A stretch of DNA of 64,000 bases from an uncultured Oscillospiraceae bacterium (GCA_964495095.1 CAZBUH010000001.1:2491-66490); one strand, 5' to 3'. Shown: positions 2,841 through 56,273, counted from the first letter of the stretch. Numbers and translations are program-made. The notes: generated by a model from the letters alone, not told the origin.

Positions 2841-5486
2841 ATGGCTCAAGCTAATGCTAAAAAGAGTACCGCGAAAAAAAATACAAAGACCTCCCAGGCC
2901 ACGGAAAAAACGCAAAAAACTCCCAGACGCCGTGAGATAGGTGCCTTTGTATGTCTGGTGCTCGGTATTCTCTCATTTATAGGGTACGTGCCCCTTGACG
3001 CGGTATTTATAAAATATTTCTGCGGCTCAATAAAGGGCATAATCGGCTGGGGTTTTTACCTTCTGCCGCCGATGCTTCTTTTGTGCTCCTACATACTGTT
3101 CTTCCACAGAGGAAGGCCGGTGCGCTTCAGGGTGTTTTCCGCCCTCATAACCACGGTGTTTTTAGGGGCGCTTCTCCATATTTTTATATGCAAAGTTGAT
3201 TACACTCTGTCCGGCGCCATGTTCAAGGAACTGGCCCGGGACTCCTTTTGGCATATCTTCAAATCGGGGGAGAGCGGACTTATCTGCGGCGGAGTGGTAA
3301 GCGGAGTCCTAGCCGTGGTGTTTCAGAAGCTCTTCAGTACGGTGGGCGCTGTAATACTGCTTATTCTGGGACTTGCCTTCTTCGCCTTTTCCGCATGCAA
3401 TCTGACCCTTGTGTATGTCATAGATAAGTTTAAAAACCGCCGCCGCCTTGAATACGAGCCGGAGCCGGAGCCGGAAAAGCGTAAAAAATACCGCCCGGAG
3501 CCGTCGGACGAGCATATTTCAGTGCGCCGGAACAATTCGCGCCCGGAGATTGATATACCTATAGACGACCCCATAATGCCGGAGCCGGAGAGGAAGAAAG
3601 GCTCGTTTTTCAATAAAAAAGCGGGCGTAAAGCGGCCGGACCAGCTTTTTGAAAACAAGAAGGAAAAGGCGGGGACGGAAGAAACTGAAAAAGCTCCTGT
3701 GGAATTCGACGTTATATATAAAGAGGACTCCTCTGAGGCTTCTGCCGCTGCTTCGGAGCCACTTACCCAACCGGAGCCCGAGACTTCCGGAGCGGACGAT
3801 ATAGACATCCCGTTCTTTGGCAGAAACGGCGAAAAACGGGTTATGCCTGCAAATCAGGGGCCCGCAAGAGCGGAAACCGAGCCGAAGCTTACTAAGGCCG
3901 GCATTGCAAAGGAACAGGCGGAGATAGCAAGGCAGGCCGAGCAGGGGATGGCTGCGGATGAGAGCGATTACCAGTTCCCGCCGCTGAGCCTTTTAAACTG
4001 CGCCGCACCGGGAAATCTGGTGGACAGCGGCGCAGAGCAGCGTGAGACAAGGGAACGGCTTGAGACGGCCATAAGAAGCTTTGGGATCAATGTAGAGGTC
4101 AGCAATATAGTTCACGGCCCGTCAGTCACCAGATATGAAATTGAGCTTGAGGCAGGCGTAAAGCTCAACAAGCTCACGAACCTTGCCGACGATATCGCCC
4201 TTTCCCTTGGGGCCAGCGGAGTGAGAATAGCGCCTATACCGAATAAAATATCAACCGTGGGCATAGAGGTGCCCAACCGGCATGTGAGCACGGTGTACCT
4301 GCGGGATATAATTGATTCCGATGAGTTTAAAAACGCAAAATCGAAGCTCACCTTCGCCATAGGCAAGAATATAAGCGGCGAGGCCGTGGTGGGGAACATT
4401 TCAAAGCTTCCCCATATGCTGGTGGCCGGTACAACCGGCTCCGGCAAATCCGTATGTCTCAACTCGCTTATTCTGAGCATACTCTACAAGGCAAAGCCGG
4501 ATGAAGTGAAATTCATCATGGTAGACCCCAAGATGGTTGAATTTAAAATCTACAACGGTATACCGCATCTGCTTATCCCTGTCGTTACAGAGGCTAAGAA
4601 GGCCGCCGGTGCGCTGCAGTGGGCCGTTACGGAGATGATGAAGCGCTACAGGCTGTTTTCCGAGACAAACGCCAGGGATTTGGCCGGATACAATGCCGCT
4701 TGCAGGGCCAGCGAGGACGAGAATATGACGCCGCTTCCGCAGATAGTGGTAGTTATAGATGAGCTGGCGGACCTTATGATGGTAGCGGCCAAAGAGGTCG
4801 AGGAGTCCATATGCCGTGTGGCCCAAATGGGACGGGCTGCCGGCGTACACCTTGTAATTGCTACCCAAAGCCCACGGGCCGACGTTATCACGGGGCTTAT
4901 GAAGGCCAATATCCCGTCCAGAATAGCCCTTAAGGTTTCCTCCGGACTTGAATCCAGGATTATACTTGATAGCGGCGGCAACGCTGAAGCCCTTATGGGC
5001 AACGGCGATATGCTGTACGCGCCCATAGGCACCAGCAAGCCTGTAAGAATACAGGGCACCTGGGTCAGCGACGAGGAACGTGAGGCAATTGTGGAGTTCT
5101 TGAAAAACTCCGGTACTGCCGAATACGCCGAGGACGTTATTGACCAGATAGAAAAAGCCGCGGCGGGAAAGGACGCCCAGAAATCCGAGCCGGAGCAGGC
5201 TGACAGCAGCGACTATGACGAGCTTCTGCCGCAGGCGGTGGATGTTGTTTTGGAAATGGGACAGGCCTCCGTATCGATGCTCCAGCGGAAGCTTAAGCTT
5301 GGATACTCACGGGCCGCCAGAATCGTCGATCAGATGGAGGAAATAGGCGTTGTAGGCCCATTTGAGGGCGCAAAGCCGAGGCCCCTGCTCATAACCCGCC
5401 AGCAGTGGCAGGAGATGCAGTTTATTAACGGCACGGCGCCTGTGGAACAGATAAACGGCGACGCGCCGTATACAGAAGAACTTTGA
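2841..5486 (+). CDS. ftsK: DNA translocase FtsK/SpoIIIE
   Basis: 881 aa with N-terminal TM segments and a low-complexity P/E-rich linker. Walker A is GTTGSGKS and Walker B is VVVIDELADLM. The C-terminal gamma wHTH is SVSMLQRKLKLGYSRAARIVDQME. Confidence 0.93.
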   Translation: MAQANAKKSTAKKNTKTSQATEKTQKTPRRREIGAFVCLVLGILSFIGYVPLDAVFIKYFCGSIKGIIGWGFYLLPPMLLLCSYILFFHRGRPVRFRVFSALITTVFLGALLHIFICKVDYTLSGAMFKELARDSFWHIFKSGESGLICGGVVSGVLAVVFQKLFSTVGAVILLILGLAFFAFSACNLTLVYVIDKFKNRRRLEYEPEPEPEKRKKYRPEPSDEHISVRRNNSRPEIDIPIDDPIMPEPERKKGSFFNKKAGVKRPDQLFENKKEKAGTEETEKAPVEFDVIYKEDSSEASAAASEPLTQPEPETSGADDIDIPFFGRNGEKRVMPANQGPARAETEPKLTKAGIAKEQAEIARQAEQGMAADESDYQFPPLSLLNCAAPGNLVDSGAEQRETRERLETAIRSFGINVEVSNIVHGPSVTRYEIELEAGVKLNKLTNLADDIALSLGASGVRIAPIPNKISTVGIEVPNRHVSTVYLRDIIDSDEFKNAKSKLTFAIGKNISGEAVVGNISKLPHMLVAGTTGSGKSVCLNSLILSILYKAKPDEVKFIMVDPKMVEFKIYNGIPHLLIPVVTEAKKAAGALQWAVTEMMKRYRLFSETNARDLAGYNAACRASEDENMTPLPQIVVVIDELADLMMVAAKEVEESICRVAQMGRAAGVHLVIATQSPRADVITGLMKANIPSRIALKVSSGLESRIILDSGGNAEALMGNGDMLYAPIGTSKPVRIQGTWVSDEEREAIVEFLKNSGTAEYAEDVIDQIEKAAAGKDAQKSEPEQADSSDYDELLPQAVDVVLEMGQASVSMLQRKLKLGYSRAARIVDQMEEIGVVGPFEGAKPRPLLITRQQWQEMQFINGTAPVEQINGDAPYTEEL

Positions 5487-6977: not shown

Positions 6978-7649
6978 ATGAACTACCGAATACTTATAGT
7001 GGAAGATGAAGATAAGCTCCGGGAGGTACTCTGTGATTATTTTATAAGCCGCGGTGATATCCCGACGGAGGCCCCGGATGGCGGGCGTGCGTTGGAGCTT
7101 ATTCAGGAAAACAGCTTTGACGCAGTGCTTCTGGATATTATGATGCCGGGGCTGGACGGCTTTTCCGTCTGCCGCGCTCTCCGCCGTGAGAGCGACGTGC
7201 CCGTGATTTTCCTGACGGCGATGTCCGATGAGGACGACAAGCTCCTGGGATACGAGCTGGGTGCCGACGACTATATTACAAAGCCCTTTTCCATGTCCGT
7301 ACTCTACGCTAAGGTCTGCGCCCTTATAAAGAGAAACCGGGGCAGCATTTCGTCCGACGGCAAATTTATACTTGGCGGCATAACAATAGATACGAAAACA
7401 CACCGCGTGGTGGCCGGCGGCAGGGAGGCGGCACTTACTCCAAAGGAGTATGATATCCTGATGTGCCTTGCCAGAAATAAAAATATCGTTATGACAAGGG
7501 AGCAGCTTCTTATAAAATGCTGGGGCTACGACTACGAGGGGAACATCAGGGCAGTGGACACCCAAATAAAGCGCCTTCGGGAGAAGCTGGGACAGCAGGG
7601 AGCCATGATAAAGACAGTCATAAAATCCGGATATAAGCTGGAGGTGTGA
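6978..7649 (+). CDS. OmpR-family response regulator
   Basis: Receiver domain (ILIVEDE, LLDIMMPGLDG, ITKPF) plus a Trans_reg_C effector (LTPKEYDILMCLARN..IKSGYKLEV). Confidence 0.9.
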   Translation: MNYRILIVEDEDKLREVLCDYFISRGDIPTEAPDGGRALELIQENSFDAVLLDIMMPGLDGFSVCRALRRESDVPVIFLTAMSDEDDKLLGYELGADDYITKPFSMSVLYAKVCALIKRNRGSISSDGKFILGGITIDTKTHRVVAGGREAALTPKEYDILMCLARNKNIVMTREQLLIKCWGYDYEGNIRAVDTQIKRLREKLGQQGAMIKTVIKSGYKLEV

Positions 7650-31227: not shown

Positions 31228-32208
31228 GTGGCTGCTTTGGCAAAAAGAATCGGCGTACTTACAAGCGGCGGTGACGCACCGGGTATGAATTCCGCGATAG
31301 CCGCCGTGGTCGATACCGCCAATTCCATGGGCATAGAATGTGTAGGTATCAGGCGCGGCTACAGCGGGCTTATCAATAACGATATATTCCCCCTCGATTT
31401 GGAATTTGTAAGCGCTATCGGCTCCCGCGGCGGCACGGCCCTGTATACGGCAAGAAGCGAGGAGTTTAAAACGCCCGAGGGGCTTAAACGGGCGGCTGAC
31501 AACTGCAAATTCATGGGCATAGACAGTCTTGTAGCGATTGGCGGTGACGGCACCTTCCGCGGCGCGCTGGCCCTTTCAAAACACGGCGTTTCAGTTGTAG
31601 CCATTCCCGGTACGATAGATAATGACATCCCCTGTACAGAGTACACCATCGGTTTCGACACCGCCTGCAACACGGCCATCGAGATGGTGGATAAGCTCCG
31701 GGACACTATGAAATCCCATGAGCGCTGCTCTGTTGTGGAGGTAATGGGACACAGATCAGGAAATCTTGCCCTGAATGTTGGCATTGCCTGCTCCGCGGCG
31801 GCTGTGCTTATTCCGGAGCATAATATTGATTTTAAAAATGACGTAATTGAGAAAATACGTAGCGCAAGGCTCCGCGGCGGCACACATTTTACGGTTATAG
31901 TGGCCGAGGGCGCGGCATCCGGCAATGAGATTGGGCAGAAGATACTGGAGGAGACCGGGATAGATACCCGCGTCACTGTACTGGGCCATGTTCAGCGCGG
32001 CGGCTCCCCTAACGCCCACGACAGGATATCGGCGGCTCTTATGGGGTATCACGCGGTAAAGGTTTTGGCCTCAGGCGGGACCAACCGTGTAATCTGCCTG
32101 CGTGACGGAAAATACGTGGACATGGATATTACCGAGGCTCTGGATATCCCCTATCGGGTATGCGAAGAGCATCTTCTGGCTCTGGAGGCTATTGGCTCCG
32201 GAGTATAA
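31228..32208 (+). CDS. pfkA: ATP-dependent 6-phosphofructokinase
   Basis: Contains IGVLTSGGDAPGMN, IGGDGTFRG and PGTIDNDI (Gly/Gly = ATP type). The true start is probably TTG 31237 (LAKRIGVL..), 8 nt after GGAGAG, rather than GTG 31228. Confidence 0.92.
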   Translation: MAALAKRIGVLTSGGDAPGMNSAIAAVVDTANSMGIECVGIRRGYSGLINNDIFPLDLEFVSAIGSRGGTALYTARSEEFKTPEGLKRAADNCKFMGIDSLVAIGGDGTFRGALALSKHGVSVVAIPGTIDNDIPCTEYTIGFDTACNTAIEMVDKLRDTMKSHERCSVVEVMGHRSGNLALNVGIACSAAAVLIPEHNIDFKNDVIEKIRSARLRGGTHFTVIVAEGAASGNEIGQKILEETGIDTRVTVLGHVQRGGSPNAHDRISAALMGYHAVKVLASGGTNRVICLRDGKYVDMDITEALDIPYRVCEEHLLALEAIGSGV

Positions 32209-32230
32209 TCCGGCATAACATCAATCCTTC

Positions 32231-32271
32231 TCCCCCCCGTCCGGTGTTTTATTCAGGATGGGGGGATTTTT
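32231..32271 (+). terminator. possible terminator after pfkA
   Basis: Stem TCCCCCC / GGGGGGA with a long (~22 nt) loop, followed by TTTTT. Confidence 0.45.
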
Positions 32272-32453
32272 GCAGATGTCAGCTTCCATTAGAGAACACA
32301 ACAGATAATCCCTATATAAATAACTGAATATCCTTCTTTTTAGAACGGACTGAAAGAATGAATAACCTACGGGCCTTGTGCGATGGAGATTGTGAACAAA
32401 AAATCATTTTCACACAACAGACAGGCTGCAGGGAGAAATCCCTGCCGTATCAC

Positions 32454-32472
32454 TTCCGAAAAGTTTCCGAAA
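32454..32472 (+). repeat. direct repeat 2 x TTCCGAAA with 11-bp period; candidate operator
   Basis: Exact 8-mers at 32454-32461 and 32465-32472. A degenerate third copy TTGAAAAG at 32486-32493 overlaps the -35 hexamer. Confidence 0.9.
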
Positions 32473-32485
32473 TACACAGGGTGTA

Positions 32486-32514
32486 TTGAAAAGTCAAAAA
32501 CAAAAATCTATAAT
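32486..32514 (+). promoter_or_regulatory. sigma-A type promoter for the riboswitch-ribU operon
   Basis: TTGAAA, a 17-nt spacer, then TATAAT. It lies ~20 nt upstream of the riboswitch. Confidence 0.65.
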
Positions 32515-32532
32515 TTATCTGACAACTGAATA

Positions 32533-32672
32533 AGGGTATCTTCAGGGCAGGGTGAAATTCCCGATTGGCGGTATAGTCCGCGAGCGTGAAAACGCAGGAT
32601 TTGGCATTGTTCGGATCAGGATTTGGTGAAATTCCAAAACCAACAGTATAGTCTGGATAGAAGAAGATAAAT
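32533..32672 (+). promoter_or_regulatory. FMN riboswitch (RFN element) aptamer
   Basis: Conserved core blocks are present: CTTCAGGGCAGGGTGAAATTCCCGATTGGCGGTATAGTCCGCGAGC, then GATTTGGTGAAATTCCAAAACCAACAGTATAGTCTGGATAGAAGAAGA. Confidence 0.93.
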
Positions 32673-32725
32673 CTCGTGTGTAAGCTGCTATTTTGCTAAT
32701 ATACGATGTTCCTTTGACTTTTTTC

Positions 32726-32766
32726 GCACCTGAAAGATATTTTTCAGGTGCAAATTTTATTTTACG
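32726..32766 (+). terminator. riboswitch expression-platform terminator
   Basis: Hairpin GCACCTGAAAGATA / TTTTTCAGGTGC followed by AAATTTTATTTT. Its left arm CCTGAAAGATA (32729-32739) can alternatively pair with the P1 5' strand TATCTTCAGG (32537-32546). That is a plausible antiterminator, so this would be an FMN OFF switch. Confidence 0.75.
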
Positions 32767-32779
32767 GAGGCATTTAACT

Positions 32780-33430
32780 ATGGAAAGCAAAACAAAGAAA
32801 ATGGCCACGATAGCAACGCTTGCAGCAATGGCGTTCGTAATGGTGACTTTCGTTCGTATTCCAGTTGTACTATTTTTGGAATATGAGCCTAAAGACATTA
32901 TCATTACATTAGGCGGCTTTATATGGGGACCGCTGGCTTCTTTTATTGTTTCGGTAATTGTTTCATTGATTGAATTGGTGACAATCAGCGAAGACGGAAT
33001 TTTGGGATTTATTATGAATATCATATCGACCTGCGCGTTTGCCTGCACGGCAGCTTTTATTTACAAGAAGAAACGGACATTGTCTGGTGCTGTTATCGGT
33101 TTATGTGCGGGCACATTGTTGATGGTGGTAGTAATGCTGTTGTGGAACTATTTAATTACACCGATTTACATGGGATTTCCTCGTGAAGCTGTTGCCGAAC
33201 TACTTATTCCCGCTTTTCTTCCATTCAATTTGATTAAAGGCGGATTAAACGCAGCATTTACATTTATGCTTTATAAGCCGGTAACAACAGCATTACGAAA
33301 AACAGGATATATATCAGCTTCCCATAATGAACAAGCGCCAAAGAAAAAGCCGATTGGATTGTGGATACTTTTTGGAATAATCATTGTTACTTGTATTTTG
33401 CTTACATTATCATTAAATGGGATTATATGA
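32780..33430 (+). CDS. ribU: ECF-transporter S component, riboflavin-specific (RibU/FmnP-like)
   Basis: 216 aa with ~6 TM. ATG 32780 follows a GGAGG RBS. The upstream ORF extension from 32693 runs through the terminator. Substrate is inferred from the FMN riboswitch directly upstream. Confidence 0.8.
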   Translation: MESKTKKMATIATLAAMAFVMVTFVRIPVVLFLEYEPKDIIITLGGFIWGPLASFIVSVIVSLIELVTISEDGILGFIMNIISTCAFACTAAFIYKKKRTLSGAVIGLCAGTLLMVVVMLLWNYLITPIYMGFPREAVAELLIPAFLPFNLIKGGLNAAFTFMLYKPVTTALRKTGYISASHNEQAPKKKPIGLWILFGIIIVTCILLTLSLNGII

Positions 33431-33439
33431 GGAAATATT

Positions 33440-34135
33440 ATGCAACGAATTTCAGATAATTCCCCATTATGTAAGTTTTCAGGTGAAGTAATACATGGGC
33501 GTGGCATAGGAAAGTTAGTCGGGATGCCAACGGCTAATCTGCAAATATCATCTGATGTGAAATTGCCGCCCAATGGGGTTTATATTACAAAAATTATATA
33601 TAATAGCTACATATATTACGGGATAACCAATATAGGGACTCGTCCTACGATTGATACAGACAGCGAAATATCTGTTGAAACGCATATTCTTAACTTCAAT
33701 CAAGGGATATATGGAGAGAGATTGGAAATTGAACTCTTTGAGATGCTTCGCAGTATCAGAAAATTTGAGGATTTTTCTTCTCTTTTAGAGCAGATACGAA
33801 AGGATTGCATTGCAACACAAGATTTTTTCGGCTTAGAAAGAACCTACTCACGGTTGCAGATGGATATTGAAAAACATCAAGCAAGAGTTGATAACCGAGA
33901 GGTCTGTCTATCAAACAAAGAATTTGATGTCTTGTATATGCTATATTCCAATCCCGATATTAGCTATACGAAAGAGCAAATTTATGAAGCTATCTGGCAT
34001 GAGCCATCTATAGGCAATTGCCATGCCGTAGAAAATACTGTTTTTCAAATTAGAAAAAAGTGCAAAGCACTTGCAGAAAATGTTGAATTCATCAAAACTG
34101 TTGTTGGATACGGATATAAGTTTTGCAGCAATTAA
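33440..34135 (+). CDS. riboflavin-kinase domain fused to an OmpR/PhoB-type winged-helix DNA-binding domain (putative flavin-responsive transcription regulator)
   Basis: Single 231-aa ORF. The N-terminal part is GEVIHGRGIGKLVGMPTANL..NGVY..NIGTRPT..ETHILNF..IYGERLEIELFEMLR..KFEDFSSLLEQIRKD. The C-terminal part is LSNKEFDVLYMLYSNP..YTKEQIYEAIW..AVENTVFQIRKK..IKTVVGYGYKF. A GAGGA RBS is present, 9 nt after the ribU stop. Confidence 0.8.
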   Translation: MQRISDNSPLCKFSGEVIHGRGIGKLVGMPTANLQISSDVKLPPNGVYITKIIYNSYIYYGITNIGTRPTIDTDSEISVETHILNFNQGIYGERLEIELFEMLRSIRKFEDFSSLLEQIRKDCIATQDFFGLERTYSRLQMDIEKHQARVDNREVCLSNKEFDVLYMLYSNPDISYTKEQIYEAIWHEPSIGNCHAVENTVFQIRKKCKALAENVEFIKTVVGYGYKFCSN

Positions 34136-34225
34136 AATGCAGACAACAATGACAACCGTTGAGGAAATCCGTACTTATGACCGAGTAGAGTTTAATTCCA
34201 AAATGGGATTTCACAGATACAAAGT

Positions 34226-34264
34226 TACCGGGGCAAAGCTGCAGCCCGCAGTTCTGCCCCGGTA
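34226..34264. terminator. bidirectional terminator between the flavin operon and the symporter gene
   Basis: 10-bp outer stem TACCGGGGCA / TGCCCCGGTA with additional inner pairing. Confidence 0.6.
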
Positions 34265-55027: not shown

Positions 55028-55729
55028 CTAATCGGCGAAATAATATCCGGCTCCGCGTTTTGTTATTATACATGTGGGAGTTGCCGGGTCATCCTCTATC
55101 TTCTCCCTGAGGCGCCTGACGGCAACATCCACCGCTCGAAGGTCGCCCAGATAATCGTACTGCCACACGTCCTGCATAAGCTGCTCCCGGGAAAAAACCT
55201 TTCCCGGCTGTGATGCCATAAATTTCAAAAGGTCAAACTCAAGCTGCGTAAGCTCCACAGGCTTATCATTTTTCTTTACCTCTATGCGCTCCGGATCAAT
55301 GGAAAGGTTTCCGGAAACTATGGCGTTCCTGCCCTTGATGTCGGTGGAAATGCCCTGTATGGAGATGGCGCGGCGGATGTTGGTCTTTACCCGGGCCATT
55401 ACCTCCCTTATGGAAAAGGGCTTTGTAATATAGTCGTCAGCGCCCAGCTCCAGACCGAATACCTTGTCCGTCTCCTCTTCTCTCGCGGTGAGCATTATTA
55501 CGGGCGTTGAAAAATTCTGTTTTCTGAATTCCCGGCAAACCTCAAAGCCGTCCATTTTAGGGAGCATGACGTCAAGCAGAATGAGGTCGGGGTTTTCGGC
55601 TCTGGCCATCTCAAGGCCGCTGGCCCCGTCATAAGCCGCCAGTGTTGTGTACCCCTCCTTGCGGAGGTTGAATTCAAGTATGTCAACTATATTTTTCTCG
55701 TCGTCAACTATCAGTATTTTACCGGCCAC
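55028..55729 (-). CDS. OmpR-family response regulator, WalR-like
   Basis: KILIVDDEKNIV, LLDVMLPKMDG, ITKPF and Trans_reg_C (LTQLEFDLLKFMASQPGKVFSREQL..RGAGYYF). GTG 55729 after AGGAGG is preferred. Confidence 0.88.
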   Translation of the reverse strand: MAGKILIVDDEKNIVDILEFNLRKEGYTTLAAYDGASGLEMARAENPDLILLDVMLPKMDGFEVCREFRKQNFSTPVIMLTAREEETDKVFGLELGADDYITKPFSIREVMARVKTNIRRAISIQGISTDIKGRNAIVSGNLSIDPERIEVKKNDKPVELTQLEFDLLKFMASQPGKVFSREQLMQDVWQYDYLGDLRAVDVAVRRLREKIEDDPATPTCIITKRGAGYYFAD

Positions 55730-56273
55730 AAGACCTCTCCTCCTGTAAATACGCCTTTGCCTTAAGTACCGCAATAACTGTTTTGCCGTCGGCTATCTCA
55801 TTATTCATTATCATCCCGACCAGCTTATCAACGCTCATTTTTTCCACTTTCAGAAATTCGTCCTCGTCGAGGTGCATTTGGCCGCTGTGAAGGCCCCTGG
55901 CCATATAGATATGGAGTATCTCTTCGCAAAAACCGGGAGAAGGATACGTTTCGCCCAGATATATCATCTCGTCGGCCATGTAACCGGTCTCCTCGCTGAG
56001 CTCTCTTACAGCGCACTGGAGAGGCTCCTCTCCCTGCTCCATTTTTCCGGCGGGTATTTCAAGAAGCTCCCTGCCGAAGGGATAACGGAACTGGCGGACC
56101 ATCGTCACATCGCCGTTTTCATCTATCGGTATTATCCCAACTCCGCCGGGGTGCTCAACAACCTCCCTGGGCACCTGCTTCCCGTTAATAAGCTCCGCCT
56201 TATCCAGCCGGACGTTTACTATAAGCCCGCTATATACTGTGCTTTTTGAGACACATTTTTCTTTGATTTCCAT
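55719..56273 (-). CDS. NUDIX hydrolase (ADP-ribose pyrophosphatase-like)
   Basis: Nudix box GKMEQGEEPLQCAVRELSEETGY. The start is ATG 56273 (MEIKEKC..). Confidence 0.85.
   Translation of the reverse strand: MEIKEKCVSKSTVYSGLIVNVRLDKAELINGKQVPREVVEHPGGVGIIPIDENGDVTMVRQFRYPFGRELLEIPAGKMEQGEEPLQCAVRELSEETGYMADEMIYLGETYPSPGFCEEILHIYMARGLHSGQMHLDEDEFLKVEKMSVDKLVGMIMNNEIADGKTVIAVLKAKAYLQEERSCGR

Follow-up and report, generated by a model that had tools for sequence, protein, structure and literature searches.

To our knowledge, control of riboflavin genes in bacteria has been described almost wholly through the FMN riboswitch, an element that Archaea, as far as we know, lack. By mechanism, the closest known system to the one described in this work is the archaeal regulator RbkR. 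Its kinase is of the CTP-dependent archaeal type, which is expected to differ in fold from kinases of the RibF type, and the domain with which it binds DNA is not known to belong to the OmpR group. RbkR is a fusion of a riboflavin kinase with a winged-helix DNA-binding domain, and it was introduced as the first transcription factor of riboflavin metabolism (Rodionova et al. 2017, PMC5397151). It was described as a 'likely activator' whose binding to DNA is suppressed by FMN. Its operators are located just upstream of promoter elements, both at genes for the synthesis and uptake of riboflavin and at the gene for RbkR itself; one or two sites are present per genome, and the sites vary between lineages (PMC5397151). 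The window analysed here, a stretch of 64,000 nucleotides from an uncultured Oscillospiraceae bacterium, encodes a protein which shares with RbkR the fusion of a riboflavin kinase to a winged helix-turn-helix (wHTH) domain, the promoter-adjacent position of the putative sites, and the association of these sites with flavin genes and with its own gene. It differs from RbkR in that a bacterial, RibF-type kinase (PF01687) is joined to an OmpR/PhoB-type domain (PF00486), in that the candidate site is a tandem direct repeat which is almost invariant, and in that it coexists with FMN riboswitches. The resemblance between the two systems looks convergent, an assessment based on Pfam scores for the fusion and on the domain types given above for RbkR.

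Boxes recognised by regulators of the OmpR/PhoB family consist of two direct repeats, each with about seven conserved and four variable base pairs and hence with an 11-bp period, and they are located in fixed orientation upstream of or next to the -35 element; the pho box replaces this element. The fusion has the effector-domain fold and the direct-repeat architecture in common with such regulators (PhoB with its pho box, and WalR and VanR with their sites), but it is devoid of a receiver domain, a phospho-acceptor and a partner histidine kinase, and its N-terminal signalling module is a metabolic enzyme. Unlike the pho box, its presumptive site leaves the -35 element intact and is located 14 bp upstream of it. 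BirA and NadR, two enzymes with a regulatory function, have palindromic sites. In these trigger enzymes, one polypeptide catalyses a step in cofactor metabolism and regulates the genes of the pathway, with the ligand state serving as the signal (PMC5397151). The fusion likewise appears to unite a cofactor-metabolism enzyme and a regulator in one polypeptide; folds, DNA-binding domains and operators are different. Finally, RibR of Bacillus subtilis, a protein of about 230 aa, possesses an N-terminal flavokinase of the RibF type and a C-terminal regulatory part for riboflavin genes, and it is described as an RNA-binding protein which acts on the FMN riboswitch leader and not on DNA (PMC12542839). 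Flavokinase N-terminus and overall size are the same in RibR and the fusion. In contrast to RibR, the conserved target at the loci studied here is DNA that precedes the promoter and is not transcribed, and it is retained where no riboswitch is present. The fusion may bind RNA in addition. Literature searches found neither a published description of this fusion system nor a published bacterial transcription factor of this type for riboflavin genes.

The operon in the window is arranged in the order promoter, FMN riboswitch, ribU and gene for the flavokinase::OmpR-wHTH fusion, with a pair of direct repeats upstream of the promoter (Table 1).

Table 1. Location of the repeat pair, the promoter and the genes discussed in the text, in window coordinates.
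Feature	Position	Strand	Description
Canonical OmpR-family response regulator	6978-7649	+	Response_reg and Trans_reg_C
Distal repeat TTCCGAAA	32454-32461	+	exact 8-mer; 7-bp core TTCCGAA at 32454-32460
Proximal repeat TTCCGAAA	32465-32472	+	exact 8-mer; core at 32465-32471
Spacer between proximal core and -35	32472-32485	+	14 bp; sequence free, length invariant across orthologues
SigA/sigma-70-type promoter	32486-32514	+	-35 TTGAAA at 32486-32491, 17-bp spacer, -10 TATAAT at 32509-32514
FMN riboswitch aptamer	32534-32672	+	Rfam RF00050, 106.9 bits, E = 7e-24
Riboswitch terminator hairpin followed by T-run	32726-32761	+	11-pair stem GCACCTGAAAGA/TTTTTCAGGTGC, then AAATTTTATT
ribU-like ECF transporter S component, 216 aa	32780-33430	+	Pfam ECF_trnsprt 64.1 bits; ECF-ribofla_trS 35.2 bits (cut-off 26.7)
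Riboflavin kinase::OmpR/PhoB-type winged-helix fusion, 231 aa	33440-34135	+	Pfam Flavokinase and Trans_reg_C
Canonical OmpR-family response regulator	55028-55774	-	Response_reg and Trans_reg_C

Both exact 8-mers reported in the first-pass annotation were read in the sequence at the positions and with the 11-bp distance given there, here measured from start to start. Their cores make up a tandem direct repeat of 7+4+7 architecture whose period is 11 bp, and the order of elements in the window is TCAC TTCCGAAA AGT TTCCGAAA TACACAGGGTGTA TTGAAA -17- TATAAT. The promoter, which had been called near-consensus, was recovered in a promoter scan with 11 of 12 consensus matches. Assuming that transcription starts near 32521, the distal core extends from about -67 to -61 and the proximal core from about -56 to -50, which places the centre of the tandem site at about -58.5; neither the -35 nor the -10 element is overlapped. 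Within the window, the repeat pair occurs at the level of chance: one exact 8-mer pair at 11-bp spacing was present compared to a mean of 1.02 per 64 kb in first-order Markov simulations, and the 8-mer TTCCGAAA itself was found five times with 3.5 occurrences expected. The significance of the pair thus comes solely from its conservation across genomes, which is overwhelming.

Two further features of this region were seen in passing. A perfect 7-bp hairpin (GCAGGGA-GAAA-TCCCTGC, 32428-32445) precedes the distal repeat by nine bases; it has no T-run behind it, and the orthologous loci do not share it. The segment 32340-32394, upstream of the repeats, is common only to the window and to locus L028 of Clostridium sp. 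Marseille-P3244 (approximately 2905-2960), and in both cases this stretch of about 55 nt holds an ATG (32359 in the window) that opens a short ORF.

Conservation was determined in a scan of one genome per species, which yielded 31 loci encoding a full-length fusion, in Lachnospiraceae, Oscillospiraceae (Flavonifractor, Angelakisella, Pseudoflavonifractor, Faecalibacterium), Sedimentibacter and others. The fusion proteins encoded at these loci are only 36-77% identical. When the pattern TTCCGAA-N4-TTCCGAA was searched with up to two mismatches, 29 of the 31 loci were found to possess the tandem site, each of them once, ahead of the operon to which the fusion gene belongs and on the same strand as that gene. 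One of the two remaining loci is uninformative because its contig begins inside ribU (L021); the other, from Sedimentibacter (L008), has a fusion and a broken-looking ribU but no recognisable site. An FMN riboswitch is present upstream in 19 of the 31 loci, and in all 19 the sequence [T/C]TTCCGAA-N4-TTCCGAA, within unrelated flanks, has the same position with respect to the promoter. Ten loci have the site although they have no riboswitch, and their promoter and 14-bp spacer are retained as well. A single match was obtained in the plasmid collection, on a 247-kb replicon of Subdoligranulum variabile, where the site is located about 980 bp upstream of the fusion gene. Conservation upstream of orthologous operons, which the first-pass annotation had named as a check on its proposal, is thus seen in 29 of 31 loci, with unchanged orientation and an invariant 14 bp to the -35 element.

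An ungapped alignment anchored on the site contained 27 unique orthologous sequences. Mean information per position amounted to 1.91 bits in the two 7-bp cores, 0.14 bits in the 5' flank, 0.48 bits in the 14-bp spacer and 1.17 bits in the -35 hexamer, where it derives from TTG only. Each of the 27 sequences has 14 bp between the core and this TTG, and with few exceptions a 17-bp spacer and a conserved TAnnnT as the -10 element come next. The -35 hexamer is reduced to TTG in nine of the 27 orthologues, while the promoter of the riboswitch-less loci L004 and L030 is near-consensus (TTGATA-17-TATAAT). The alignment also bears on a degenerate third copy, TTGAAAAG at 32486-32493, that had been claimed in the first-pass annotation to lie on the same helix face. 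This claim was not upheld: the sequence is 21 bp and not 22 bp away from the second copy, and it is the -35 element itself, of which only TTG is kept among the 27 promoters. Against a background of about 1.75 matches to the 7-bp core, the 27 promoters averaged 6.9 matches at the two repeats (offsets 0 and 11), 2.0 where a third copy in phase would fall (offset 22) and 3.6 at the -35 element, the last value being due to TT plus some A residues. No further conserved copy was detected up- or downstream of the two repeats in these promoters.

The genes between promoter and fusion vary, and four types of operons with the site at their head were distinguished: (i) P-RFN-ribU-fusion, as in this window and most other loci; (ii) P-ribU-fusion, without riboswitch; (iii) P-RFN-ribDEBAH-fusion, in which the riboswitch is followed by ribD, ribE, ribBA, ribH and the fusion gene (L003); (iv) P-fusion-ribDEBAH without RFN, represented by L030 and probably by L004, the latter judged by promoter and leader alone. 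Site, promoter and fusion gene are the constants among these types. The site is therefore linked to the fusion gene, and neither to the riboswitch nor to ribU. As in the regulon of RbkR, it stands in front of riboflavin synthesis or uptake genes together with the gene of the fusion itself. Its arrangement is also that of an OmpR/PhoB-type operator, as direct repeats with an 11-bp period, a candidate cognate Trans_reg_C protein and a fixed orientation and position were all found.

Specificity of the linkage was assessed in several ways. None of 49 control loci encoding other OmpR-type proteins contained an exact site. The exact site occurs once in the 2.0-Mb genome from which the window is derived and about once per genome in the 31 fusion genomes, where two extra exact sites lie inside coding regions. 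A site with one mismatch on contig C61 was considered as an additional regulon member and rejected, as it is located between convergent gene ends without a promoter and the number of such sites equals chance expectation. Likewise, six extra exact or one-mismatch sites inspected in the 31 fusion genomes, which are part of a larger set with many other one-mismatch matches, were all located in coding sequence and had no promoter geometry. Among 301 genomes of the same order the fusion is present only in this genome, and the bare pattern was found in 16 of the 301, a frequency similar to that of a reversed-pattern control. In a reverse test, metagenome contigs were fetched solely by virtue of the site followed by 14 bp and TTG, with at least 1.7 kb of downstream room required. 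The fusion was encoded downstream in 22 of 25 contigs that had a -10 element at 17 bp, compared to one of 31 contigs without such an element. The three exceptions were two degraded cassettes (L157 and L184) and an apparent chance match to a promoter-like sequence (L172).

Two Pfam domains were detected in the fusion, namely Flavokinase (PF01687; residues 12-129, E = 4.3e-36) and Trans_reg_C (PF00486; residues 153-228, E = 1.1e-15, 57.9 bits with a cut-off of 26.2). There was no match to a receiver domain (Response_reg) in the protein; residues 12-129 are occupied by Flavokinase. Because it has no receiver domain, the fusion is not a response regulator. An AF2 model consists of a beta-barrel domain and a domain made up of a beta-sheet, three helices and a wing, with the wHTH elements in the order E139-155, H159-170, H178-185, H195-211 and E218-228. 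In agreement with this, sequence matches in the PDB were RibF kinase modules for the N-terminal half and effector domains of response regulators (E of about 1e-8) for the C-terminal half. Among 20 aligned members, which share 52-92% of their residues with the query, there is no variation in the recognition helix HAVENT[VI]FQ[IV]RK, and equally invariant are the kinase motifs PTAN (P30-N33), E80 and Y91-G92, which align with solved RibF kinase modules. Given the invariance of PTAN and E80, the kinase domain is probably active, and its ligand state would be the natural signal.

The family includes more than 400 cluster representatives (90% clustering) with both Pfam domains and is widespread in gut Lachnospiraceae and Oscillospiraceae; no curated NCBIfam model exists for the fusion, and protein names in the source are generic. 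Family-wide, the recognition helix reads HAVENT[VI][FY]Q[IVL]R, and the sole change is A to P (HPVENT) in L011 and L016. The family-wide conservation of this helix matches the near invariance of the site; as both scarcely vary, no covariation between them is visible. Small stand-alone or truncated ORFs which are 63-75% identical to the wHTH domain only were also encountered (L032, 3956-4282; L034-L036, 3893-4237; L037; L038, 4052-4333). The one at L034 has as its neighbours a resolvase gene and another small gene for a wHTH protein. These wHTH-only loci (L032 and L034-L038) were examined as further carriers of the site and dismissed, as no tandem site is present at a promoter and the 'site' with two mismatches at L034-L036 lies inside the resolvase gene.

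The first-pass annotation had suggested that the repeats are the operator of the fusion and that the operon is autoregulated. This suggestion gains support from the conservation of the repeats, their linkage to the fusion gene regardless of operon type, their uniqueness within genomes and the outcome of the reverse test. As far as can be judged from sequence comparison, TTCCGAA-N4-TTCCGAA at 32454-32471 is very likely the operator of the fusion encoded at 33440-34135. It had also been stated that no other protein of the OmpR type is encoded nearby, which is true of the operon; the window as a whole, however, also encodes the two canonical response regulators listed in Table 1.

By analogy with OmpR/PhoB-type regulators, two wHTH domains would probably bind head-to-tail, one per repeat, on a single face of the helix. 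The bound dimer would then contact RNA polymerase and activate initiation at the operon, including the fusion's own gene. A positive effect of the site is slightly favoured; it is inferred from the position, that is, from a site at about -58.5 that keeps a rigid distance of 14 bp to the -35 element without overlapping the core promoter. The nine of 27 -35 hexamers which keep TTG only might also speak for activation, although a comparable -35 element (TTGCAA) precedes the riboswitch-only ribU of this genome, which has no repeat. The kinase domain would act as the flavin sensor, and binding of FMN might weaken the interaction with DNA, so that transcription would begin only when flavins are scarce. 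The role of FMN as an anti-inducer is put forward tentatively. It is proposed because DNA binding by archaeal RbkR is suppressed by FMN (PMC5397151), and because a riboswitch-less ribDEBAH operon needs an 'on' signal at flavin scarcity for sensible feedback. In this genome a two-step gate would result, in which the protein licenses initiation and the riboswitch terminates transcription when FMN is ample; in riboswitch-less genomes the protein would be the sole flavin control. Taken as a whole, an explanation that combines an operator bound by the fusion, activation, and flavin sensing by the kinase domain appears likely.

The same protein and site might also work with the opposite sign, such that the flavin-bound fusion represses a constitutively strong promoter, its occupancy possibly spreading or looping towards the -35 element or blocking contacts of the alpha-CTD. 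Near-consensus promoters are usually independent of activators, which speaks for repression, and promoters of this kind are found in the window as well as at L004 and L030; in addition, negative control of ribDEBAH would be the simplest form of feedback. The enzyme-regulator fusions BirA, NadR and PutA are repressors (PMC5397151). It is difficult to reconcile with repression, however, that in none of the 27 promoters the site overlaps the -35 element, the -10 element or the start, that a steric block would not need a rigid distance of 14 bp to the -35 element, that no conserved third or fourth half-site bridges the gap to this element, and that one third of the -35 hexamers (9 of 27) are reduced to TTG. 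Repression is thus regarded as rather unlikely.

It is highly improbable that the repeats are bound by another, unlinked factor, for example an OmpR-type response regulator, and that the fusion binds riboswitch RNA in the manner of RibR. Such a scenario would account for the presence of two OmpR-family response regulators in the window and for the FMN riboswitch that accompanies the fusion at most loci, and a flavokinase of the same length, RibR, does bind rib leader RNA with its C-terminal part (PMC12542839). Yet both response regulators are encoded more than 20 kb away from the site and have no linkage to it, control loci with other OmpR-type proteins have no such site, and the site is found only where the fusion gene is, following it across families and into a cassette that was probably acquired horizontally. 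A function in RNA does not fit with the location of the site upstream of the -35 element, where it is not transcribed, with its retention at ten loci that have no riboswitch, or with a C-terminal domain that is a bona fide Trans_reg_C DNA-binding domain. Least credible of all is a chance or structural origin of the repeat, for example as the boundary of a mobile cassette, as a site of recombination or as a UP-like element. The chance-level frequency of exact 8-mer pairs in the window, the horizontally acquired appearance of the cassette, and a similarity to the closest relatives that begins essentially at the repeats would be compatible with such an origin. It is contradicted by a conservation far above that of the flanks among loci whose proteins share only 36-77% identity, and by the invariant phase with the promoter; a second copy at the far end of the cassette and a recombinase are both lacking, and the sequence is not A/T-rich as would be expected of a UP element.

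Activation of the operon by the fusion, as preferred above, would make the system a counterpart of RbkR. On balance we consider it probable that Clostridia possess a sensor composed of a RibF-type kinase and an OmpR-type domain that acts beside the FMN riboswitch, activates via an 18-bp operator and is carried on a mobile cassette. In the window, the block at approximately 32.2-34.2 kb (32200-34250) has a G+C content of 35-42%, compared to 50-58% in the flanks and 54% in the genome. Given this AT-rich block and the absence of the fusion from 300 other genomes of the order, the cassette, which consists of operator, promoter, riboswitch, ribU and regulator, was probably acquired horizontally as a self-contained unit. 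The fusion is the only DNA-binding protein carried along with the site. Inspection of the cassette revealed no second copy of the repeat at its other end and no recombinase.

The same genome harbours a second FMN riboswitch (C82:8595-9467), which drives a second, canonical-looking ribU of 226 aa; at the promoter of this riboswitch-only ribU there is no repeat. A separate RibF-like flavokinase is encoded on contig C8. In the assembly, which is 90% complete, there was no sign of a riboswitch of riboflavin synthesis, and this suggests that the host may depend on imported riboflavin. The leader ACAACTGAATAA (32522-32533), located where the transcript is predicted to begin and immediately ahead of the FMN aptamer, is conserved among L001-L031 and is similar to the terminator's 5' arm (GCACCTGAAAGA, 32726-32737). 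This leader was considered as a second operator, and this was ruled out because a similar leader, AACATTTGAATA (C82:8575-8594), is located ahead of the riboswitch-only ribU of the same genome. The leader seems to belong to the expression platform of the riboswitch and not to the operator of the protein.

The system very probably represents a trigger enzyme, an enzyme and regulator in one, which makes use of an OmpR-type tandem-repeat operator and adds a protein regulator to a pathway that, in bacteria, is viewed as riboswitch-controlled. If this is true, bacteria would have a convergent counterpart of archaeal RbkR, and the system would be part of a natural circuit with two checkpoints, in which the protein at initiation and the RNA at elongation read the same metabolite pool. 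The 18-bp operator and the 231-aa regulator constitute a directly testable pair, which could also serve as a compact flavin-responsive expression switch. Loci with and without riboswitch offer a natural experiment on the stacking of protein and RNA control on one operon. As the family occurs in gut Lachnospiraceae and Oscillospiraceae, it bears on the vitamin B2 economy and on cross-feeding in the gut.

Some additional observations were made in the course of the searches. Degraded cassettes are present in gut metagenomes (L184, 25-330; L148, 51-3073; L157, 5361-6100; L163; L179). One of them is composed of site, promoter and riboswitch with no genes behind, and in another, ribU is separated by a 1.4-kb insertion from a fusion that is truncated at its N-terminus; the others have a truncated ribU or frameshifted fusions. 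In a fusion-less genome of the same order, 11-bp units of the form TTCCGAAC(C/T)C(A/T)T follow one another in an array (G105:C106:45158-45230) that matches the pattern at least four times, with overlaps, and is unrelated to the fusion. At one Lachnospiraceae locus (L002), an azaaromatic (yjdF) riboswitch is located directly downstream of the fusion gene (4777-4897).
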